This document shows positions 1 to 60,866 of a stretch of 64,000 bases of DNA, in pieces. Source of the DNA: Patescibacteria group bacterium (GTDB taxonomy: Bacteria; Patescibacteriota; JACPGU01); assembly GCA_041675145.1 (NCBI GenBank), contig JBAYUK010000001.1, positions 312,283 through 376,282 on the forward strand, in the 5' to 3' direction. The notes under the pieces were generated by a model that saw only the letters and a list, made by a program, of their open reading frames with translations, had not been told where the DNA came from and searched no databases. Every line of letters starts with the position of its first letter. The first letter of the stretch is position 1. The translations under genes were made by a program, and so were the position numbers.

Positions 1-867
1 CAGTCCCTCAATACCGTCTATCAGCTCGACACGACGTTCTAGGCCACTGTCCACGACCGCCAACTGGCGGCCTGGAGAGGGCAGGAGTGTGCGACCAGTC
101 TCCAAGGCATTGGTCGAAACTACTACCTTGGGTAGGCCATACGACCGGTAGGCTCGGTTCTTCTCCGAGCGTTCGAGCTGCCCGTGAAACGGGATCAGCT
201 CGGCTGGGGTGCCGGATAGCTGGGAGATTGTTTCTTCAATCTCCTTTTTGCCCGGCTGAAAAACCAGGACATCGAACCCCTCGGCAACCAACGTTTTTAT
301 GTCGGCCACGAGGTCTTGGCCAGCAGCCCGATCCACGATCGGAAATTGCCGACCCGGCACCTTGAATACCGGAGCATTGCCCCGCTTGCGCGAGAGCTCG
401 GCCGAATCCAAGGTGGCCGACAAGACAATGATTTTCCTAAAAGGAGAATCACCGACCTGGAGGTGTTTCCACGCCCAGGCTTCAAGAGTGGACTGATTCG
501 TATTCCACTCATGAAGCTCGTCGATGACGAGAACCTCGAACCGGTTATGACCGGCGAGTTCCCGCACCAAGGCAAGCCCGTCAGTACAGAAAAGGATCTG
601 CGAATCCGGGCTGTCGCAGCGACTGCTCGCCGTGCGATACCCCACCTCGCACCCCAACTGCACCCCGGCCAATTCGGCGACGTATTCTGACGTGCCGACG
701 ACCGTTTCTACCAGAGGCTCAGTGACGAGCACTCGGTAGCCGAGCTCACGGTACCACTGGGGCACCATGGTGGACTTGCCGGAGCCGGTCTCGGCTTCGA
801 CAATAATGTAGGGAGCGTCACTCCCTAAGATATCGGCCTTAAAGGCCTCGATAGGGAGCGCTTCCAT
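1..867 (-). CDS. ATP-dependent DEAH-box helicase (HrpA/HrpB-like), N-terminal part. The C-terminus lies beyond the window start.
   Basis: Minus-strand translation from the ATG at 865-867 gives MEALPIEAFKADIL...ETGSGKSTMVP (Walker A) ...VIDELHEW (DExH box) ...VLSATLD...FHGQLERSEKNRAY. It is not in the ORF track because there is no stop inside the window. A GGAGGA RBS lies upstream. Confidence 0.7.
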   Translation of the reverse strand, partial: MEALPIEAFKADILGSDAPYIIVEAETGSGKSTMVPQWYRELGYRVLVTEPLVETVVGTSEYVAELAGVQLGCEVGYRTASSRCDSPDSQILFCTDGLALVRELAGHNRFEVLVIDELHEWNTNQSTLEAWAWKHLQVGDSPFRKIIVLSATLDSAELSRKRGNAPVFKVPGRQFPIVDRAAGQDLVADIKTLVAEGFDVLVFQPGKKEIEETISQLSGTPAELIPFHGQLERSEKNRAYRSYGLPKVVVSTNALETGRTLLPSPGRQLAVVDSGLERRVELIDGIEGL

Positions 868-1106
868 ACTTCCTCCATATCCTGCTTGTCGCTAGAGCGA
901 ATTCAAGTCTTACGGAAAATCCTTCATTCTTGACCTTCTACAAACAAGAGCAAGAAAAAAGATTTGAGGTTTTGACTAGACCTCGAACTAGCATATACAA
1001 ACGGCAGGGTATATGAGCCTATAAGTTGAGAGTGGTGATTTTTATTCGGGAATCACCAAACCTTCTGGTTATTTGTATCGCGCCAAACCTGTATAGCGCT
1101 AGGTCC

Positions 1107-1262
1107 TTACCCTCTATCCTGCGACTCCAGCTCTTCTATGAGAGCCTTCAACGTCATCAGGACAAAGACCTGGAATTGGTCATCTGGCATTGGTCCGCTC
1201 TCACGAACTGCCTTCAAACGGTCGTCCAGGTTCTCAACTAAGGTCGAGAATATCGGATTCAT
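1107..1262 (-). CDS. small hypothetical protein (~51 aa)
   Basis: Minus-strand ORF MNPIFSTLVENLDDRLKAVRESGPMPDDQFQVFVLMTLKALIEELESQDRG with a GGAGGTGA RBS 5 nt upstream of the ATG. It lies in the GC-rich block. Confidence 0.35.
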   Translation of the reverse strand: MNPIFSTLVENLDDRLKAVRESGPMPDDQFQVFVLMTLKALIEELESQDRG

Positions 1263-1360
1263 ATATCACCTCCTTTCTGTACCTGTCTTTGTTGAGTAGA
1301 CAGATTGAGCGGAGGGATATATAGGAGTTGTTTTAAGAAGGTCTCATAACTTCTTTTGTC

Positions 1361-2317
1361 TTACTTGATGGCCGCCCGGATGGCCGCTAGTGCGGCCTCC
1401 TCATGCTCGGGATCAACATTCGCCTTTTGGGCGAACCCCGATGCCGAAGGCACGGCGGCCTTGACGACTGCCAAGAGGTCAAGCCCCTTGTCGGCCGTCC
1501 CGAAGGAAATCTGCCGCGTCTTGCGGCCAAGGCTTTTGTTAAAAGCCTCTCCTTCGAGCGCCACCACTCTGGCGCCTGAGCGATAGAGGGTCGACATGAG
1601 AGTGGTCATGTCAACCTGATGACCGATGGCGTTCACTCTCGTGATGCCGTCGCCAAGGTCTGACTTGGCGTCGAGGATTTCCTGGTGGTTAGCCAGGATC
1701 ACCTCGTATTCCTTGATCCATCCTTGGATCGTGGAGTCCGCCTCCTGGTTTTCTGCCAGGTGACGGGCCAGGTAAACCCGGCGGGTGTCATCCGCAATGG
1801 CGGACTTCACCGACTGGTTGACGAGAGCACCCAAGCCCTCGAAAACCATCCGGTCAGCGGCGTCTGCCGCTGACAATAGTTCGGAAGTGTGGCTGTCCAC
1901 TTCCATTCCAGCCGCCTCGAGGGCGCGCCGAAGAACTTCACCGGACGAGCCAGGGCCGCCTTCGGCGGTCTGGCTCTGGGGCTCAACAATGAGCCCTTCG
2001 AGGGTGCCGAGCACCCTCTCCCAGTCTTCGCGGTTGTGCTCATCGCACACCGCGACTACCTCGTGACCGGCCTCTTTGAGGCGGGCCACGAAGGCCACCG
2101 TCATGGACTCGTCGCGGTTATTCACTGCGAGGTCGACCAGAGCGACTTTTTGCCCTGGCGCCCAAGCAGCCGGATTAATCCGGTCAACCGTGAAGGCTTG
2201 GGCAAATTCCAGCCCAACCTCATTGGCGTTCCCGATCAGGCGCAGCAGAGCTGCGGAAGTCAGAACGCCGTCTACTGAGCCGGTGGCTACGATCTTGGTG
2301 ATTGCTTTGAAATTCAT
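1361..2317 (-). CDS. hypothetical protein (319 aa) with GC-rich codon usage. A VAVCDEHN motif gives a weak DHH-like hint.
   Basis: Track ORF 1361..2503, trimmed to the internal Met (MNFKAITKIV...) that carries an AGGAGAAAAC RBS. No confident family match by eye. Confidence 0.5.
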   Translation of the reverse strand: MNFKAITKIVATGSVDGVLTSAALLRLIGNANEVGLEFAQAFTVDRINPAAWAPGQKVALVDLAVNNRDESMTVAFVARLKEAGHEVVAVCDEHNREDWERVLGTLEGLIVEPQSQTAEGGPGSSGEVLRRALEAAGMEVDSHTSELLSAADAADRMVFEGLGALVNQSVKSAIADDTRRVYLARHLAENQEADSTIQGWIKEYEVILANHQEILDAKSDLGDGITRVNAIGHQVDMTTLMSTLYRSGARVVALEGEAFNKSLGRKTRQISFGTADKGLDLLAVVKAAVPSASGFAQKANVDPEHEEAALAAIRAAIK

Positions 2318-3086
2318 TGTTTTCTCCTGAGCTGTCGGTTTAACTCCCCTTGCGGGTGAGTACCGTTTGACCGCTCTGCAGTGGCGGTCAAATACACTCA
2401 GAAGAATCAAGTATCCGTGTCGCCTCTCATTTTCGAAGCGACACGGACTATTAGCTATTAATCGATGAATGAATAGTATCTTGATGTTTATTTGATGAAA
2501 CACAAAAACCTCCCGAAAGAGGAGATTGCATTCTTATAGATACTAATATCTATCTTATATTCTTTCACCATCCTCGAGCGCCCCGGTTCCTGTACCCGGA
2601 CATTGGATTGTGAAAAACTACGGTCATTTGGTTGTTAAGGATTCGCGTTTGTGTGAAACTGGACTTCTTTTGTGAAGACACCACTGGTAGTGAGTATGAG
2701 TAGTTGCAAGCTATCTCCTGATTATAGTTCACAACCAGTTGGCTTCTTCGCAATCCCCTGTGATGGGGAGAAGATATGGGAGCGGTTTATGTCATCTCTT
2801 TTGGTCCGTTACCTCCAAAAGGTTTGTAATGACGACGCGGGGAACGCCCTTTCGTAACTATCGGTATGGCGAGGGAATGGTCATTTGATTAGTCTCCTGA
2901 ACCTTTCAAAGTGACCTGTTTTTGATGTGCGTCTTTGTCTGTCGTATCTGTGTCTCATCCTTATGACACCATTATAGCATAAATAACTAAACTTGTCAAG
3001 CATAATTATCTATAATAAGCCAATATATGCCACTTTACAGGTTAAAAGTCCTTTGAGAAACACCTCTATTTATTGATAATTGGGCT

Positions 3087-3115
3087 TGTCAAACTACCAA
3101 AAAAGAGCATAATTT
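3087..3115 (+). promoter_or_regulatory. sigma70-like promoter for the TrmB-family gene
   Basis: TTGTCA, a 17-nt spacer, then ATAATT, ending 9 nt upstream of the ATG at 3124. The transcript would be near-leaderless. Confidence 0.4.
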
Positions 3116-3123
3116 AAGAAAAT

Positions 3124-3891
3124 ATGTATCAAAAACAGCTAGAACAATTAGGGCTTTCAGACAAAGAAGCAGTGGTCTATGAGGCACTAGCCAATCAAGG
3201 TATGTGCCAACCACCAGAACTCGTGAAACCAACGAAGCTGGGCCGCACTACGGTCTACGCAGTTTTGGAAGCACTGGTCAAAAAGGATCTGGTTGAGAAG
3301 AAGCAGGTTGCGGGTAAGGCTCATTTTGTAGTCACCCACCCGAGCAATCTCGAGGGTCTGATTGCGATCCAGGAAAAAGCCTTGGTTAATAAAAAAGAGA
3401 CCCTCCAGAGTCTCCTACCAAACCTCGTCTCCGCCTATATCCTCGTCTCAAACAAGCCCCATGTCAGATACTTTGAAGGGTCAGAGGGAGTTCAGGCAGT
3501 ACTGACCGACTCACTCACCGCCCAAAGCGAGATACTCGAATACGCTGATCCTGAGGCTGTGATGACCTATATCAAAAAGGAAAATGCCGCGTATGTGAAA
3601 CAACGCGACAAGCGTAAGATTAAAAAGAAAATCATCGTCATCGACAGCCCCTTTGCGAGAAACTTATTCAAAGACTACTACCAAAAAGTCACCGATACGA
3701 AATACATCGATCACGAAAAATTCCCTTTCTACGCGGTCATGATGATCTATGATAACAAGATTTCCTACCTCACCCTAACTAATAAAGCGCGGCTCGGGAT
3801 CATTATCGAGGACGAGCAAATCTATAAAATGCACCGTTCCCTATTCGAATTTACTTGGGAGAAGGCACAGACCTTCGGAACAAAAAAATAA
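3124..3891 (+). CDS. TrmB-family (sugar-specific) winged-HTH transcriptional regulator
   Basis: N-terminal LGLSDKEAVVYEALANQG...PPELVKPTKLGRTTVYAVLEALVKKDLVEKK wHTH and a C-terminal TrmB-like effector domain. Confidence 0.65.
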   Translation: MYQKQLEQLGLSDKEAVVYEALANQGMCQPPELVKPTKLGRTTVYAVLEALVKKDLVEKKQVAGKAHFVVTHPSNLEGLIAIQEKALVNKKETLQSLLPNLVSAYILVSNKPHVRYFEGSEGVQAVLTDSLTAQSEILEYADPEAVMTYIKKENAAYVKQRDKRKIKKKIIVIDSPFARNLFKDYYQKVTDTKYIDHEKFPFYAVMMIYDNKISYLTLTNKARLGIIIEDEQIYKMHRSLFEFTWEKAQTFGTKK

Positions 3892-3903: not shown

Positions 3904-4875
3904 TTATTTTTTATCCATCATCTTGTGAGCCGCTTCGATAATGTCGTCGGTGTCGATGTGGTATTTTTTGATTAATTTTTCAGGATCGCCGGATTCGCCA
4001 AATTTATCCCGGACTGCGACCAACGAAATTGGGACGGGGCAATGTTGCGCGGTGTATTCGGCAATTGCCGAGCCCAATCCTCCTGCCATTTGGTGGTCTT
4101 CGGTTACAATAAAGCGTTTACATTTCTTGGCATATACTTCGATTATCTTGCCGTCCAATGGCTTGATAGTATGCATGTTGATCACCGCGGCTCGTATGCC
4201 GTGTTTCTTTAGTTCCTTTGCGGCCAATAAGGCTCGGTAGACTGCTTCACCGTGAGCAAAGATAGCGATATCTCGTCCTTCTTGTAAGACCTGAGCACGA
4301 CCCACCTGAAACGGCGTCTTCTCGGTAGTAATAGAGGGGACATCACTTCGTCCAAAACGGATATATACTGGACCCAGTATCTTCGCTGCTGCACGTACGC
4401 ATTTTCTCGCTTGCCAGTAGTCAGCAGGTGCTAGTACCGTCACGCCGGGTAAGGTACGCATGATAGCAATATCTTCTAGTGCTTGGTGCGTTGCCCCGTC
4501 GCCACCGGTAGTAATACCCGCGTGACTGGCGACAATTTTCACATTGGCACGGTTGTATGCCACTGATACCCGGATCTGCGAGAGCGCTTGGTTGGGCGTA
4601 AAGACCGCAAAAGACGAGGTGAATGGAGTAAATCCTTCCAGCGCCAAACCGGCTGCAGCAGAAATCATGGTGGCTTCGGCAACACCCATCTCAAAGAAAC
4701 GAGTAGGGTACTTACGACGAAACTCGCTCACCTTGAGCGACTCAGCCAGATCCGCATCGAGCACGACAATCTTTTTATTTTTCTTGGCCAACTCCAACAG
4801 CTCGTCCCCGTACCCGGCGCGACATGACTTCTTCTCAGGACCAGTAAATAGTGTGGTGTCTAGGTAAAGATTCAT
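3904..4875 (-). CDS. tkt: transketolase, C-terminal (pyrimidine-binding) subunit
   Basis: 323 aa with FEMGVAEATMISAAAGLALEGFTPF...NRANVKIVASHAGITTGGDGATHQALEDIAIMRTLPG. Typical split-transketolase C-terminal subunit. Confidence 0.85.
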   Translation of the reverse strand: MNLYLDTTLFTGPEKKSCRAGYGDELLELAKKNKKIVVLDADLAESLKVSEFRRKYPTRFFEMGVAEATMISAAAGLALEGFTPFTSSFAVFTPNQALSQIRVSVAYNRANVKIVASHAGITTGGDGATHQALEDIAIMRTLPGVTVLAPADYWQARKCVRAAAKILGPVYIRFGRSDVPSITTEKTPFQVGRAQVLQEGRDIAIFAHGEAVYRALLAAKELKKHGIRAAVINMHTIKPLDGKIIEVYAKKCKRFIVTEDHQMAGGLGSAIAEYTAQHCPVPISLVAVRDKFGESGDPEKLIKKYHIDTDDIIEAAHKMMDKK

Positions 4876-4876
4876 A

Positions 4877-5695
4877 TTATTTCAAAAAAGAAAGTGCTCG
4901 TGTATATTCGTCGTTATTGGGTGCCTTTCCGTGATAATGATAATTATTCTCAATAAATGGTACTCCCTTCCCCATAACGGTAGTGCACAGTACGAGTGTA
5001 GGCTTAGAAGACCGGGTTTGCGCCTTCTCAAAAACGGTAAGTAGACGAGAGACAGAGTTACCGTCTACCATCAGTACCCGCCAACCAAGCGTTTCGTAGC
5101 GAGTTGCAATATCCCCGAGGTTACTTACTTCTTCAGTGGTGCCACTAATCTGCATGTGGTTACGGTCTAATATAAAGACGAGGCTGGAGAGCGCATGTTT
5201 CCCCGCTGCAGCAACCGCCTCCCAGGTAGAACCCTCTTCGTGCTCGCCGTCTGAGGTCATACAAAATACCCGTGACTTTGATTTGGTTAGGCGGAGAGCC
5301 AGTGCCTTACCGACCGCCACTCCCACACCTTGTCCCAGAGGTCCGGTTGAGGTTTCAATTGCGTCCCAAAAACTATGACTGGGGTGACCCTGAAGCGGTG
5401 AGCCAAGCTTCCTCAGAGTTACTTTTTTATCTCCCAAGTACCCAGCCTTTATCAGGCATGCGTAGTAGATAGGGCAAATATGTCCACAGGATAATATAAA
5501 TCGATCCATCTGAGCACGCTTGGCGTGTAATCGAGAGTGACGCAGGACCCCACCGAAGAAAAGAACAGAAAAAATATCTGCCGTTCCCAGAGACGACCCC
5601 CAGTGACCAGAGCCTGAGGCATAGAGCATCTCCGTTACCATCAGGCGCAGGTCTTTGGCGGTTTGTTCAAGTTGCTGTGTATGTGTGTGTTGCAT
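4877..5695 (-). CDS. tkt: transketolase, N-terminal (TPP-binding) subunit
   Basis: 272 aa with SGSGHWGSSLGTADIFSVLFF...GHPSHS...GPLGQGVGVAVGKALA...SDGEHEEGSTWEA. It is immediately upstream of the C-terminal subunit gene. Confidence 0.85.
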   Translation of the reverse strand: MQHTHTQQLEQTAKDLRLMVTEMLYASGSGHWGSSLGTADIFSVLFFGGVLRHSRLHAKRAQMDRFILSCGHICPIYYACLIKAGYLGDKKVTLRKLGSPLQGHPSHSFWDAIETSTGPLGQGVGVAVGKALALRLTKSKSRVFCMTSDGEHEEGSTWEAVAAAGKHALSSLVFILDRNHMQISGTTEEVSNLGDIATRYETLGWRVLMVDGNSVSRLLTVFEKAQTRSSKPTLVLCTTVMGKGVPFIENNYHYHGKAPNNDEYTRALSFLK

Positions 5696-6334
5696 CTATA
5701 CGCGAGATAAGTCTTCAAATGATTTTTTTGGGTCAGCGGCTTTCAGTATCGCACCACCTATAACTGCAGCGTCAGCCCCAGCATCCTTCACGGCGTGGAT
5801 GGTATTATGCGTAACGCCTCCGTCCACTTCAATAACAAGGTTCGGGAATTCACGTTTTAGTACACGTACTTTATCCAGCGCCTCAGGGATTAATTCTTGT
5901 CCACCAAATCCCGGGATAACTGTCATGACTAGTACGCCGTCAATCTGAGTGATATACGGGTGCAGTTTTTCAACACCTGTTCCAGGGTTAATACCGAGAT
6001 AGACCGCAATGCCCCTATGTTTGTAACGCTCAATAGCTACTGCAACATTATCTGACTCAATGTGAACTACAACCCGAGTAATTTCTAACCGCACAATTTC
6101 CGGCATTACCGCAACAGGGTCCACTACCATCAGGTGCGCTTCGTAGATACCACTTTTTGGTAAACTCACAATATCCGCCAGCTGAATGGTGGTGTTTTCT
6201 ACGAACTGTCCATCCATAATGTCTATTTGAACTTCGTCGGTCAGAGAAAGGGCGAGTTGTAGCTTGCTCTCAAACTCTGCACTGGAAAACGCTAAAATAG
6301 CAGGAATACTATGCATAGAGTCATCATAAAACAT
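5696..6334 (-). CDS. rpe: ribulose-phosphate 3-epimerase
   Basis: DIMDGQFVENTTI...HLMVVDP...MTVIPGFGGQELIPEALDKV...VDGGV. The start may instead be the internal Met at about 6316. Confidence 0.85.
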   Translation of the reverse strand: MFYDDSMHSIPAILAFSSAEFESKLQLALSLTDEVQIDIMDGQFVENTTIQLADIVSLPKSGIYEAHLMVVDPVAVMPEIVRLEITRVVVHIESDNVAVAIERYKHRGIAVYLGINPGTGVEKLHPYITQIDGVLVMTVIPGFGGQELIPEALDKVRVLKREFPNLVIEVDGGVTHNTIHAVKDAGADAAVIGGAILKAADPKKSFEDLSRV

Positions 6335-6427
6335 CGCTGTTAAAAGGGGAAGGTTCTTTTATATGCTCGTTTCTGCTATACTATTTTCCACACCAACACA
6401 CATCCCATCTCACAAAAAGGAGCGGTC

Positions 6428-6973
6428 ATGGAAGATCTACCCGCATATTGGAAGAAGTCTGATGTTACGGCAATTGCCAAAGCTCGTGACTACACCGATC
6501 TTTTCCTGATTGCGCAGCGCGTCCAAAAGCGCATGCCAAATCTCCCCCTTACACAGGTCTGTGGACCTATTAGTACTGGGGGACAGGGAAGTATCGAAAA
6601 AAACATGGCTCAGCTTGACTGGGCAATTCTGCGACTGAAAGAAATCGAAGAAAAAGAAAACATTCCTTCTTGTGTCTTTGATCAGCGACATTTCGAGAAG
6701 CCAATTAGCACAATCCTCAAAAAACGACGCGAAACTGGACAGGTAACTGGGTATGACTGGGACATTCTGCGCCGCTTTTACGAACCACTGTTTGAAATGG
6801 GCCGAGTTCAGACCCTGGTATTTTTACCCAAATGGCGCTCATCTAAAGGAGCCAACTGGGAACATGAATACGGGGTTCGTAAGGGATGGAAACTGCTCTA
6901 TCTGCCCAACAACTGGCCAATCTCTATCAAATCGATGCGAGCGCTTGAGGGATGTACCCAATCCCGCCTGTAG
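6428..6973 (+). CDS. hypothetical protein (181 aa)
   Basis: ORF with a GGAGCGG RBS-like stretch. A CGPISTGG motif is faintly nucleoside-2-deoxyribosyltransferase-like. Confidence 0.45.
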   Translation: MEDLPAYWKKSDVTAIAKARDYTDLFLIAQRVQKRMPNLPLTQVCGPISTGGQGSIEKNMAQLDWAILRLKEIEEKENIPSCVFDQRHFEKPISTILKKRRETGQVTGYDWDILRRFYEPLFEMGRVQTLVFLPKWRSSKGANWEHEYGVRKGWKLLYLPNNWPISIKSMRALEGCTQSRL

Positions 6974-7021
6974 CACGCATTTTCTAGGAATCAAAAAGGG
7001 CGCCACCGGCGCCCTTTTTTC

Positions 7022-7450
7022 TCACCTTTTTTCTAGTTTTTTAATACGTCGTTTATGGCGCGTCTCACCTGAGAACGGGATATCCAGGAACGCTTTCACA
7101 TACTTCTTAGCCGTATGTTCGTTAATAAAGCGAGATCCAAGACAGAGCACATTAGCATCGTTTTCGCTTCTCCCCATTACTACTTCATGCTCCATAGCTC
7201 CCACAACGGCGCGTACATTACTGTACCGATTCGCCATCATACACATACCAGACCCTGTACCACAAAAGAGAAACCCTTTATCCTTTTTCCCGATCTTTTT
7301 AGCTAGTTTACGCGCAAAATCAGGATAGTCGTCAGTTGGTACCTCAGAGTCTGCCCCTAAATCTACATATTCAAGGTGCAAAAAGTCTAGGAACTGAGAA
7401 ATCACTTCCTTGAGCTTGAACCCAGCATGGTCGGCAGCTAAATAAATCAT
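7022..7450 (-). CDS. rpiB: ribose-5-phosphate isomerase B
   Basis: MIYLAADHAGFKLKE...FLFCGTGSGMCMMANRY...LCLGSRFI is the RpiB/LacAB signature. Confidence 0.85.
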   Translation of the reverse strand: MIYLAADHAGFKLKEVISQFLDFLHLEYVDLGADSEVPTDDYPDFARKLAKKIGKKDKGFLFCGTGSGMCMMANRYSNVRAVVGAMEHEVVMGRSENDANVLCLGSRFINEHTAKKYVKAFLDIPFSGETRHKRRIKKLEKR

Positions 7451-7505
7451 AATAAGATTCTACCACTTTAGTCTAAAAAACACAACCTTTTTATCTAAAA
7501 ATAGC

Positions 7506-8078
7506 CTATTTTTGAGGTATTTCAGGGAAGTACAGGGAGCGGTATACCCCCTCTGATCTGGTCACTCGAGCCACGAATTGCTCTGTTTCCTTGAATTTTA
7601 CCGCATAATCCCCTTCGGCCAGCCACTGATCTACCGTTCCTGGCCCCGCGTTATATGCAGCCAAAACCTTATCTTGCTCCTGGTACTTGGCAGATAAGAG
7701 GCTTAAATAGTAGCACCCGTACGCGATATTTGTCCCTGTTTGCCTCAAAACTTGAGGATCAAAGCTACTGTGCCCCATCTTACCAGCCAGATACTTCCCT
7801 GTTTCAGGCACAATCTGCATCAGCCCCAGGGCATTTGCCCCTGAGTGAGCTGCCGGATTAAAGCGACTTTCCTCGTAAATGACTGCCGAAACAAATGAAG
7901 GATCGAGGTTATATTCCTCATAACAGCGGAAAATATCTCCGGCATTGGTCAGCGGGTACCTCATATGCAAATACCGATCATACACGCCGTGCACTCCGGC
8001 AATGCCGGTTATCCCCAGAACTAGAAGCACTACTATCCCTACCACCAGATCAAAGTAAAAACTGCCCTGCCTTTTCAT
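7506..8078 (-). CDS. membrane-anchored lytic transglycosylase (SLT domain)
   Basis: N-terminal TM, then EESRFNPAAHSGANALGLMQIVPETG...AYNAGPG, the family-1 lytic transglycosylase motifs. Confidence 0.75.
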   Translation of the reverse strand: MKRQGSFYFDLVVGIVVLLVLGITGIAGVHGVYDRYLHMRYPLTNAGDIFRCYEEYNLDPSFVSAVIYEESRFNPAAHSGANALGLMQIVPETGKYLAGKMGHSSFDPQVLRQTGTNIAYGCYYLSLLSAKYQEQDKVLAAYNAGPGTVDQWLAEGDYAVKFKETEQFVARVTRSEGVYRSLYFPEIPQK

Positions 8079-8179
8079 GCCTCAATCATATCATCTGTCG
8101 ACCAGCCTGCAATATATCTTTTTTCTCGATATGATATAATAGATTCAATAGATATGGAGAGGCTTAAACGAGTACTACC

Positions 8180-9643
8180 ATGTATGACCTTTCTTCATTT
8201 TTTGCTCTCTCTCCTCGAACACTCACCCCAGATGAGCAGGCTTTGATCGAAAAAGCCTACCACTTTGGAAAAACCGCTCATGAAGGACAGTTCCGTTTTA
8301 GCGGAGAACCTTACTTCGCCCATGTCTATGCGGCAGCCACCACGCTTCTCAAACTCAATCTCGACGCCGAGACTATCGCCGCTGGATTTTTACATGATGT
8401 TCCGGAAGACACCGCCATTACTCTTGAAGAGATAGAAAAAAAGTTTGGTTCTGAAATTGCCTTTCTCGTTAAAGGCGTGACTAAACTTACCCAGGTACGC
8501 TACCGCCACACCCAAGAAGGACAGATGGAAAATCTGCGTAAAACGTTTCTCGCTATGGCGCAGGACATCCGCGTGGTTCTCATTAAGTTGGCCGACCGGT
8601 TGCACAACATGCAGACTCTCTCTGCAGTACCCAAAGACAAGCAACTGCGCATTGCGCGCGAAACACTGGAAGTGTACGCACCCATTGCGCACCGCCTCGG
8701 GATTGGAGAAATTAAAGGAGAGCTCGAAGACCTAGCCTTTGCCTATGTGTATCCCAAGGAATACGAGAAGCTGCTTACTGAATCTACTCCCTACTATACC
8801 GGTATCAAACAGTACATTGAGCGCATTAAGCCGGAACTAGTAACTGCGCTTAAACAAGAAGGAATTACCCCGCTCTCACTGGACGCCAGAGCTAAGCACC
8901 TCTATTCACTACATAAGAAACTCTTAAAAGAAGGAAAGAATATCGACTCCATCTACGATATTACCGCACTTCGTATTATCGTTGCCTCAATTGACGAGTG
9001 CTATAAAACCCTGGGGCTCATCCACAAGCTCTTCCGTCCACTGCCGGGGCGCATCAAAGACTACATTGCTCTACCAAAACCAAACGGATACCAGAGTTTA
9101 CACACTACCGTTTTCTGTTATGACGGAAAAATTGTAGAAATTCAAATTCGTACTATGCAAATGCACCAGGAAGCAGAAAATGGAATTGCTGCTCACTGGG
9201 CATATGCCGAACATGGTAAGCCCAAGAAGGGCTTTGCTATGAGCCACCATAAATTCAACTGGGTCAAGCAACTTCGCGAATGGCAAAACATGGAACTAGG
9301 AAGCTCTGAGTTTATGGAGTCATTAAAAATAGACTTCTTCAAGAACCGCATCTTCGTTTTTACTCCAACTGGTGATGTTATTGACTTACCAGAGGGAGCA
9401 ACACCAATCGACTTTGCCTACCAGATCCACTCTGATGTGGGAGACCACGCTTCGGGTGCGATGGTGAATAAAAAGATTGCTCAAATCAACACGCCACTGC
9501 AGAACGGAGATATTGTTGAAATCTTAACGCAAAAAAACAAAGAGCCAAATCGTCAGTGGCTTGGCTTTGTGAAAACCTCAGGCGCACGAAGCAAAATTAG
9601 ATCTAAACTAAAAAAGCACGGGTTCTCACTTTTTAAGAAATAG
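8180..9643 (+). CDS. relA: bifunctional (p)ppGpp synthetase/hydrolase (RelA/SpoT homolog, Rsh)
   Basis: HD domain (HDVPEDT), synthetase motifs (SLHTTV, IQIRT) and a TGS domain (IFVFTPTGDVIDLPEGATPIDFAYQIHSDVG). An extended -10 TGATATAAT lies at about 8130. Confidence 0.85.
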   Translation: MYDLSSFFALSPRTLTPDEQALIEKAYHFGKTAHEGQFRFSGEPYFAHVYAAATTLLKLNLDAETIAAGFLHDVPEDTAITLEEIEKKFGSEIAFLVKGVTKLTQVRYRHTQEGQMENLRKTFLAMAQDIRVVLIKLADRLHNMQTLSAVPKDKQLRIARETLEVYAPIAHRLGIGEIKGELEDLAFAYVYPKEYEKLLTESTPYYTGIKQYIERIKPELVTALKQEGITPLSLDARAKHLYSLHKKLLKEGKNIDSIYDITALRIIVASIDECYKTLGLIHKLFRPLPGRIKDYIALPKPNGYQSLHTTVFCYDGKIVEIQIRTMQMHQEAENGIAAHWAYAEHGKPKKGFAMSHHKFNWVKQLREWQNMELGSSEFMESLKIDFFKNRIFVFTPTGDVIDLPEGATPIDFAYQIHSDVGDHASGAMVNKKIAQINTPLQNGDIVEILTQKNKEPNRQWLGFVKTSGARSKIRSKLKKHGFSLFKK

Positions 9644-11730: not shown

Positions 11731-11949
11731 CTATAATAACCTGAGTAAGTCTTCTGCAGTGAGACGCGCGTATCGCAAGATACTTTTAAGTGTACCAACC
11801 CTCATATCTCTACTATGGTACGGAACAGTGACGACCATATCCTCCTTTGTGAAAACTCTGTGACTGCCTCTTTGACGAACAAATAAAAAACCGGCTCTTT
11901 CAAGAGCTCGGATTAGTTCTTTTGGCTTTAGTACTGGAATCTGTGACAT
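11731..11949 (-). CDS. hicA: HicA-family mRNA interferase toxin
   Basis: 72 aa MSQIPVLKPKELIRALERAGFLFVRQRGSHRVF is a classic HicA. Confidence 0.8.
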   Translation of the reverse strand: MSQIPVLKPKELIRALERAGFLFVRQRGSHRVFTKEDMVVTVPYHSRDMRVGTLKSILRYARLTAEDLLRLL

Positions 11950-11955
11950 TTAGTA

Positions 11956-12243
11956 CTATACTTCAACACTGACCGGAGCAACTATTACACGTGAAGTATA
12001 AGGGATGTTATTTTTATTTTCTTTCGAAACTTCAATATACAGTTCCGCTGCCTCTCGGATATTATCAGATGCCTCTTCAAACGTGTCTCCTTCAGAGACA
12101 CAACCAGGCAACGCAGGTACCGTAACCGTATACCCGCCTTCAGGCGCCTCTTCAAAGACAGCAGCGTATTGATGCACAGTAGTCATAAGGAGTTTCTTGC
12201 TCATGAGTATATTATGCCAATAAAAGTGCGAACGGTCAAACAC
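11956..12243 (-). CDS. hicB: HicB-family antitoxin
   Basis: YTVTVPALPGCVSEGDTFEEASDNIREAAELYIE is the HicB/UPF0150 fold. The true start is probably the internal Met at about 12186-12204. It overlaps the upstream acyltransferase stop. Confidence 0.65.
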   Translation of the reverse strand: MFDRSHFYWHNILMSKKLLMTTVHQYAAVFEEAPEGGYTVTVPALPGCVSEGDTFEEASDNIREAAELYIEVSKENKNNIPYTSRVIVAPVSVEV

Positions 12244-60689: not shown

Positions 60690-60866
60690 GCTTGCCTAAC
60701 CCTCATCTCTTGGTGAGGTATGGTGAATAAATCCGGATATAGGGGAGAGAACTCTCCGTTTAAGGTGTTACCTATATCCGGTCTATGCTCGAAAGGGCAT
60801 AGGATAGTCGCAAGACTGTCGCATCTTAGCGGGGAGCTTTTTGCGTTTTAATACTAAATTATCACT
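60690..60866 (+). ncRNA. structured 5' leader (candidate cis-regulatory RNA) upstream of the thermonuclease gene
   Basis: Nested hairpins: CCTCA-N8-TGAGG, then CCGGATATAGG[GGAGAG-aa-CTCTCC]...CCTATATCCGG, then CTATGCTC-GAAA-GGGCATAG. No known riboswitch class recognised. Confidence 0.35.

Follow-up and report, generated by a model that had tools for sequence, protein, structure and literature searches.

Genomic islands and other mobile elements are usually AT-richer than their hosts, as Rocha and Danchin reportedly found in 2002. GC-biased gene conversion, which Lassalle et al. are said to have described in bacteria in 2015, has reported effects on the GC content of third codon positions (GC3) of a few points. 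The subject of this article is a GC-rich block at the left end of a 64,000-nucleotide (nt) stretch of a Patescibacteria group bacterium (contig JBAYUK010000001.1, positions 312,283 to 376,282 of the forward strand), a stretch that is called the window below. The block carries genes for a helicase of the DEAH/RHA type and for a 318-amino-acid (aa) protein, p318, with a predicted DHH/DHHA1 fold. In the Patescibacteria themselves, 125 genomes from an aquifer contained many islands, with transfers occurring mostly between Patescibacteria (PMC12455944).

The step in base composition that ends the block is the right-hand edge of a genuine accessory island in a chromosome of the Patescibacteria, or candidate phyla radiation (CPR). 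Like the aquifer islands, it is an atypical block with sharp borders and patchy accessory genes beside toxin-antitoxin genes; it differs from them in that no integrase, transfer RNA (tRNA) gene or attachment (att) site accompanies it, and in that its compositional offset is family-wide and follows the host. Opposite to the usual island or mobile element, it is GC-richer than its host. The comparison with GC-biased gene conversion also goes both ways. GC3 is likewise raised in particular genes, independently of expression, and allele replacement is possible in one syntenic clade, whereas the offset here is far larger (~25 GC3 points) and does not extend beyond the coding sequences. A positive, host-tracking offset of this size in one small gene set is unusual, and our literature searches turned up neither this family nor GC-rich islands in Patescibacteria. 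The next sections describe the island, its family and the explanations that have been considered.

The GC step and the extent of the island

The initial annotation reported an abrupt GC discontinuity near the start of the window, and the discontinuity is real. Positions 1-2400 contain 56.0% GC and positions 2521-64000 contain 45.5%; against sliding windows of 2.4 kb taken outside the block (n = 306, mean 45.4%, standard deviation (sd) 1.9, maximum 52.4%), the block has a z-score of 5.6. In 300-nt windows, the first 2.3 kb has 55-65% GC, which drops from 62-65% at 1800-2200 to 40-43% at 2300-2700, and from ~2350 on the values are 40-45%. Inside the block, GC dips to 43% at 800-1300, which corresponds to two spacers (39-42% GC) and a 51-aa open reading frame (ORF; 49%). 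The block, first given as about 58% GC, is not uniform, and its coding sequences have 57.5% (helicase) and 60.5% (p318). The host DNA is less AT-rich than had been stated: its intergenic regions have ~40-42% GC instead of ~30%, and its genes ~46% instead of ~43%.

GC is elevated at all three codon positions of the block, and the borders are sharp. The GC3 of the 58 host ORFs is 0.464 ± 0.059, from which the helicase gene deviates with a z-score of 3.2 and the p318 gene with one of 4.2. The tetranucleotide signature, normalised for GC, gave a mixed answer: the island correlates with the host reference at r 0.43-0.46, below most host windows (0.6-0.8), but the worst host windows fall to 0.42, and by itself this correlation does not decide the matter.

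The block was first described as the initial ~2.4 kb of the window, but it begins further upstream. In the source contig, the GC-rich stretch extends ~2.4 kb upstream of window position 1 and then gives way to DNA with 37-46% GC, which makes the island ~4.9 kb long in total. The contigs and loci compared in this work are labelled L001-L062; L001 and L003 hold the full helicase gene, and window position 1 corresponds to L003 position 6878. In L003 the two-sided island occupies ~4400-9300 at 55-64% GC, and both flanks have 38-47%. The block thus has the composition of a genomic island, since it differs from the host and has discrete borders. All island genes lie on the minus strand of the window. 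The features at its right-hand end are as follows.

1-867, minus strand: DEAH/RHA helicase gene, N-terminal 289 codons of 645 aa, GC 57.5%, GC3 0.656; the rest lies upstream of the window
868-1106, no strand: spacer inside the island, 41.8% GC, equal to the host intergenic level; holds a 20-nt repeat at 945-964
1107-1262, minus strand: 51-aa ORF, GC 49%; a strong Shine-Dalgarno sequence, AAGGAGGTGA, lies 5 nt upstream of its ATG
1361-2317, minus strand: gene for p318 (318 aa, predicted DHH/DHHA1 phosphoesterase fold), GC 60.5%, GC3 0.712; hallmark gene of the module
2318-2520, minus strand: right-hand border; GC drops here from >60% to 40-44%; 5' leader of p318 with three hairpins
2521-3123, minus strand: non-coding stretch with a host-like 40% GC; its membership of the module is uncertain
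3124-3891, plus strand: gene for a TrmB-family regulator, divergent from p318, GC 45.6%, host-like; outside the GC-rich block

The sole repeat pair that brackets the island is 34 nt long, 71% identical and located in AT-rich DNA, and it was treated as a chance match. A 20-nt direct repeat, CAAGAGCAAGAAAAAA[T/G]ATT, occurs with 95% identity at window 945-964 and at L003 4300-4319, in the spacer of the left border. Its copies sit in two AT-rich spacers of the island and do not bracket it; the repeat may be a shared promoter or operator motif. No Rfam family was found at or near the island, either in a gathering scan of the whole window or in an E-value scan of 850-3200.

An assembly chimera or a contig-end artefact, in which DNA of two organisms had been fused, was also proposed for the step, and at first sight it is suggested by the position of the block, which abuts the window start, and by the many family members that lie on short contigs or contig ends. 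However, the window start is merely the point at which the sequence was cut, and the source contig runs at least 250 kb further. The window matches the ENA contig k141_651027 (377,424 bp) with 0 mismatches, and there the block is interior, with host-like DNA on both sides. A Logan contig (32,522 bp), from an assembly made by different software, carries both junctions in identical form. Across the 13.9 kb compared, the window shows no mismatch to either assembly, and p318 and the neighbouring TrmB protein were located as exact sequences on both the ENA and the Logan contigs. Furthermore, gene order and strand are coherent over both borders, the AT-rich/GC-rich/AT-rich layout is repeated in dozens of unrelated assemblies, and a similar GC spike was seen in 40 other assemblies. 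Given the interior position in a 377-kb contig and the presence of both borders in both assemblies, the chimera and contig-end explanations were rejected, and we regard a fusion of this kind as extremely improbable.

A GC offset shared by the whole family

In every one of the 40 non-duplicate loci, the GC of the p318 homologue exceeds that of its background, by +3.1 to ~+36 points (mean +14.0, sd 6.5); the set was assembled from 21 loci of a genome scan and exact look-ups, two more look-ups and 20 metagenome loci. Control ORFs of at least 150 aa that lie more than 5 kb away have a mean offset of +1.0 ± 3.1 points, and none of the 77 is above +8. Two other genes of the island behave like p318: the helicase subfamily has offsets of +8 to +17.5 in nine of nine loci, and p455, a 455-aa protein encoded next to the helicase, has offsets of +9 to +14 in five of five, including two loci without p318. 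The spike is one gene wide in L022, L025, L031, L009, L021, L028 and L029, and in L037 a flank of 28-36% GC meets a gene of 66-70%.

The offset follows the composition of the host. GC3 of p318 rises with host GC with a slope of 1.36 (r = 0.67, p = 4e-6) and that of the host genes with a slope of 1.80, and the two lines are near parallel, 0.23-0.31 apart. In L022, L025 and L031, p318 stays at 53.5-56.4% GC over a range of host GC from 36% to 46%. The GC excess is limited to the coding sequence, because the spacers of the island have 39-42% GC, the same as the host intergenic DNA (40-42%), and spacers in other loci behave in the same way.

Two general causes were considered and set aside. High expression alone is unlikely because in L008 the genes for GroES and GroEL stand 5 kb away from the module and yet resemble the host in GC; the window itself holds no ribosomal protein genes for such a comparison. 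A process that acts on the whole region, for instance local repair or gene conversion, is disfavoured by the spacers and the interleaved toxin-antitoxin genes, all of which are host-like or AT-rich.

The surroundings of p318 are themselves not uniform, as 16% of the ORFs within 5 kb of it exceed +8 points, versus 0% further away, and many loci have unrelated GC-rich ORFs next to p318, some of them with 69-78% GC. One ORF of 177 aa (L011, 6047-6580), located between a TrmB-like and a DHH gene in a genome of 44% GC, has 78% GC, a GC3 of 0.94, a poly-Thr run and Ala/Arg-rich sequence of low complexity.

Proteins of the module

The p318 protein was initially annotated as 319 aa long and is one residue shorter. 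Its AlphaFold model (pLDDT 94.6) has the two-domain architecture of the DHH and DHHA1 folds, and Foldseek matched it with probability 1.00 to the PAP phosphatase 8a8k (7.5e-10), PggH 7d62, RecJ, GdpP and NrnA; the 35 PDB matches with E <= 0.001 also include the exopolyphosphatase PPX1 and Cdc45/GAN. The family alignment contains invariant D16, D62, D92-E93-H94 and D155 residues, together with the GSVDG and DLAVNNR motifs. D62, D92-E93-H94 and D155 fit motifs II-IV of the superfamily, the motifs having been assigned by eye with no structural superposition. Like NrnA, PggH, GdpP, the PAP phosphatase and RecJ, p318 shows the two-domain fold, and it appears to have acidic and His residues at motifs II, III and IV. 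In contrast, its identity to DHH/DHHA1 phosphoesterases is just 11-16%, and several signatures are altered: motif I reads GSVDG, with a single Asp in place of the canonical DxD, motif III reads DEH in place of DHH, and GGGH is replaced by SGFAQK. No match was found in Pfam (including the DHH and DHHA1 profiles) or NCBIfam at E <= 0.01, or in PADLOC. By its modelled fold, p318 is a predicted phosphoesterase of the DHH/DHHA1 superfamily.

The DEAH-box helicase fragment recognised at the start of the window is indeed the N-terminal part, 289 of 645 codons, of a DEAH/RHA helicase in which motif II reads DELH. The whole gene is present in L001 and L003, where it reaches L003 position 5807. The protein has the Pfam domains DEAD, Helicase_C, HA2_N and HA2_C, as well as winged-helix and ratchet domains (PF04408, PF21010). 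The superfamily 2 (SF2) motifs I, II (of the DExH type), III and VI are all present, and the sequences GSGKS at 28, DELH (II) at 116, SAT at 150 and QRRGRTGR at 301 are intact. Among PDB sequences, residues 2-614 match residues 76-726 of E. coli HrpA (E 1.8e-52) and also Prp16/DHX8. With HrpA/HrpB and Prp16/DHX8 the helicase shares the RecA1/RecA2 core, motifs I, II, III and VI, and the winged-helix and ratchet domains; unlike HrpA and HrpB, it is much shorter and is coupled to a DHH enzyme. Since its scores fall far under the NCBIfam equivalog cut-offs (206.5 bits versus 722.75 for HrpA and 183.5 versus 546.15 for HrpB), assignment as an orthologue of either was rejected, and by sequence the protein is classed as a member of the DEAH/RHA superfamily that is neither HrpA nor HrpB.

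The gene for p455 directly follows that of the helicase, on the minus strand and outside the window. The protein has no Pfam, NCBIfam, PDB-sequence-profile or significant Foldseek match. This is a further difference from HrpA/HrpB, because full-length HrpA is in the PDB library and the C-terminal partner p455 nevertheless finds no match there. In L014 the helicase and p455 are fused in frame in a single ORF of 1423 aa, and because of this fusion p455 is read as a detached C-terminal module of the helicase. The 51-aa ORF is predicted as a gene in both assemblies; it has no homologue in the related loci and no match in Pfam, NCBIfam or PADLOC.

The gene order DHH, helicase, p455 is repeated in L008, L017, L038, L043, L057, L058 and L062. 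Because of this repeated order and the helicase-p455 fusion in L014, the best explanation is that the DHH protein, the helicase and p455 form a single functional unit. To judge from their folds and gene linkage only, the helicase would unwind RNA or DNA, and the DHH enzyme would degrade the exposed strand or short oligonucleotides. Like Hachiman, Mokosh, Gabija and other anti-phage systems, the module joins a helicase to a predicted nuclease or phosphoesterase and is found in plastic regions, next to toxin-antitoxin genes, but the resemblance to these known systems is one of context alone, and none of the 5,027 PADLOC models is matched by the four island proteins or by a neighbouring 1085-aa protein.

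Two related loci present a different arrangement. In L035 (1085-14143), another protein, with an RDHHD motif, comes first, followed by the helicase, p455 and then a DnaQ-like exonuclease; these readings were made from the sequence, and Pfam gave no confirmation of the RDHHD protein or of the DnaQ-like one. This module has ParB-methyltransferase genes on one side and a large serine recombinase on the other, with comEC alongside, and the locus looks like an integrated element. In L036, a GC-rich helicase-p455 pair has directly upstream a 185-aa protein (1011-1568) with a Pfam SAVED match and apparent N-terminal membrane helices, a neighbour that hints at a link to cyclic-oligonucleotide signalling or defence.

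Distribution and neighbourhoods

The p318 family is small. Among 5.8 billion proteins p318 has 191 relatives, with 50-70% identity, and a hidden Markov model (HMM) search returned 213 cluster representatives among 1.84 billion; p455 has 34 relatives. Every named relative of p318 belongs to the Patescibacteria (Uhr-, Taylor-, Falkow-, Doudna- and Peribacteria), and the TrmB protein of the host is likewise annotated as Patescibacteria. An origin outside the phylum is ruled out by these same-phylum best hits, the very outcome that the initial annotation had named as refuting its idea. The closest relative is just 69-70% identical, which leaves the sampled genomes without a recent donor.

A search for p318 that took a single genome from each species gave 24 loci, nearly all of them labelled CPR. 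The few labelled Gammaproteobacteria carry unreliable labels because they are syntenic with, and 80-85% identical in DNA to, a metagenome-assembled genome (MAG) of Parcubacteria. No relatives turned up in IMG/VR (pattern scan, confirmed by tblastn), among the INPHARED phages or among the PLSDB plasmids, and a viral or plasmid origin was rejected for this reason. The 4.4-kb contig L037 was negative in a circularity test.

The module occurs in at least eight different neighbourhoods, and its patchy distribution in varied contexts is that of a genomic island. Genes for PIN, HicA/HicB and RelE-like toxin-antitoxin proteins stand beside it in six loci, all with a host-like or AT-rich composition. 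In the window, a HicA/HicB pair is found at 11731-12204 (L003 18608-19081), ~9 kb from the island, and similar pairs occur directly beside the module elsewhere. Sequence identity also separates p318 from its neighbours. Across deep lineages the identity of p318 is 59%, against 33% for the TrmB protein next to it, and in the syntenic clade p318 is 77-84% identical where the flanks are 92-98% identical (protein level). This pattern would suit exchange or allele replacement.

In the syntenic Parcubacteria clade of L022, L025 and L031, the DHH gene is immediately preceded by RNase P RNA (5186-5565 in L025). Two MAGs of this clade are among those labelled Gammaproteobacteria. The conserved stretch upstream of p318 in these three loci, which had been considered as a leader element, is this RNA, and the candidate was rejected. 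Downstream of the DHH gene, the L025 clade has a variable insert of 5-6.7 kb and a tRNA.

Origin of the island and of its composition

We think it somewhat probable that the island holds an accessory DHH-DEAH module that is exchanged within the phylum and has coding sequences whose GC stays above that of their hosts. Exchange among Patescibacteria, rather than import from an outside donor, is the most likely route by which the module reached this chromosome, because the family is small, phylum-restricted and patchy and lives in varied, plastic neighbourhoods. As for the composition, the offset occurs in every genome examined and follows host GC while the spacers are host-like, and for these reasons we infer a force on the coding sequence that would keep the module genes ~14 GC points (~25 GC3 points) above the genome around them. 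This force may be selection that acts on mRNA or codons, or GC-biased gene conversion through repeated allele replacement; membership of a separate GC-rich mobile gene pool is a third candidate. A more specific version, that selection on the transcript holds the coding sequences GC-rich and that their composition amounts to a self-immunity of the DHH-DEAH system, is in our judgment rather unlikely. Under it, the mRNAs would escape AU-preferring RNases, the neighbouring mRNA-cleaving toxins, or the helicase-nuclease activity of the module itself.

Several observations weigh against exchange of a module with a maintained offset. In this genome, no mobility gene (integrase, recombinase or transposase) and no tRNA lies within 10 kb on either side of the island, and no convincing att site or direct repeat was found at either border. 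Among the loci, a serine recombinase stands next to the module in L035 alone. A metagenome scan with the TrmB protein found in the collections no close relative of the host that could serve for an empty-site check. In L022, L025 and L031, p318 keeps the same syntenic place, adjacent to RNase P RNA, and looks vertically inherited. The organism labels of several MAGs are unreliable; moreover, the 40 loci that define the offset are not phylogenetically independent, and their background GC was taken from 2-14 kb of flank only. The tracking of host GC by GC3 argues for long residence and weakens the case for frequent transfer. In the other direction, the GC-rich ORFs next to p318, the low GC3 of the syntenic clade and its balance of substitutions, both given below, fit a slow decay from a GC-rich source.

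The idea of a recently acquired foreign block, put forward in the initial annotation, draws on that last group of observations. In a fuller form, the block would have come from a GC-rich donor (~58-70% GC) and would be drifting slowly to the composition of the host, the family being made up of many imports from one reservoir at different stages. The sharp borders, the rise at all three codon positions, the tetranucleotide correlation below most host windows, the concentration of unrelated GC-rich ORFs within 5 kb of p318 and the steep contrast in L037 all agree with it. The syntenic clade, furthermore, has the lowest p318 GC3 (0.62-0.68), and on its terminal branches the third positions of p318 count 49 GC-to-AT against 33 AT-to-GC changes, with the reverse in the flanks, although these numbers are small and not significant alone. 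What speaks against a recent import is that no donor was found, the best match being 70% identical and from the same phylum, and that p318 is at parity with its host in no sampled genome, even in hosts of 58% GC. The slope of its GC3 on host GC is near that of the host genes, which a single external pool does not predict, and the spacers are already at the host intergenic level while the synonymous sites are not. A single fresh import predicts neither the family-wide excess, nor the host tracking, nor the confinement to coding sequence; therefore the idea keeps just partial support, in that the composition is atypical and the module looks accessory and exchangeable, and as a whole we consider it improbable. 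The opposite proposal is a vertically inherited, long-resident cluster without real mobility, whose GC is raised by a gene-specific force, either mRNA or codon selection or GC-biased gene conversion at a recombination hotspot. It accommodates the coding-only offset that tracks host GC in parallel with the host genes and that persists in the syntenic clade after ~18% nucleotide divergence and a shift of host GC from 36% to 46%, and also the recurrence of a TrmB-like gene beside p318 in eight loci. On the other hand, vertical inheritance in Patescibacteria sits poorly with so small and patchy a family, whose neighbourhoods vary widely and include toxin-antitoxin and recombinase genes and whose identity patterns are decoupled from those of the flanks. 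The best relatives of the host TrmB protein (56% and 46% identity) lie in unrelated contexts with no p318 beside them, and gene conversion should have lifted the GC of the spacers, which is not raised. Strict vertical descent is thus doubtful as well. Exchange of the module within the phylum, combined with a force acting on its coding sequences, is the explanation that we prefer.

The upstream region and other features of the window

The region between p318 and the TrmB gene contains a possible promoter. A sigma-70-type sequence with a TG extension, matching at 12 of 12 positions, lies at 2999-2971 on the minus strand and points to p318, and two of the three hairpins in the leader (2527-2507 and 2448-2413) are terminator-like. 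Together they may outline a leader of ~460 nt for p318, which could be regulated, or a separate transcript, either of which is a candidate. The 800-nt region upstream of p318 has no Rfam match and no similarity in the other loci, its fold z-score is a modest -2.17, and the 5' leaders of p318 homologues share just a generic hairpin before the ribosome-binding site. The TrmB-like protein is a candidate regulator of p318 because its gene neighbours p318 in eight loci.

Just upstream of the window, L003 830-4087 encodes the 1085-aa protein mentioned above, which has a weak GNAT domain only and, at 40% GC, is AT-richer than the host; proteins related to it occur together with a TrmB-like gene in the vicinity of the DHH gene in L005, L011, L013, L015 and L019. 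The only Rfam matches in the whole window are two tRNAs and a LOOT RNA (RF03000), all far from the island. The LOOT RNA lies at 60693-60820 on the plus strand, between two divergent genes, and scores 79.6 bits against a gathering threshold of 46.4. Finally, the cumulative GC skew declines from position 1 and turns up near 58-60 kb, which could mark a replication origin or terminus.

Implications

The module is a previously uncharacterised three-part set, composed of an enzyme with a predicted DHH fold, a DEAH/RHA helicase and a C-terminal part without a fold match in the PDB, and it is restricted to the Patescibacteria, a group in which RNA and DNA turnover is poorly understood. A GC anomaly is commonly taken as a sign of recently acquired foreign DNA or of faulty assembly; in this case it is a property of a gene family. 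Island finders and binning tools that rely on composition will therefore flag or split this locus again and again, and short contigs do hold many of the family members. If selection on the transcript were the cause, the positive and host-tracking offset would be the reverse of what is usual for mobile and accessory DNA, which is AT-richer. If the offset is actively maintained, the family would offer a clear natural case in which biased gene conversion could be told apart from selection at synonymous sites, in bacteria whose genomes are small.

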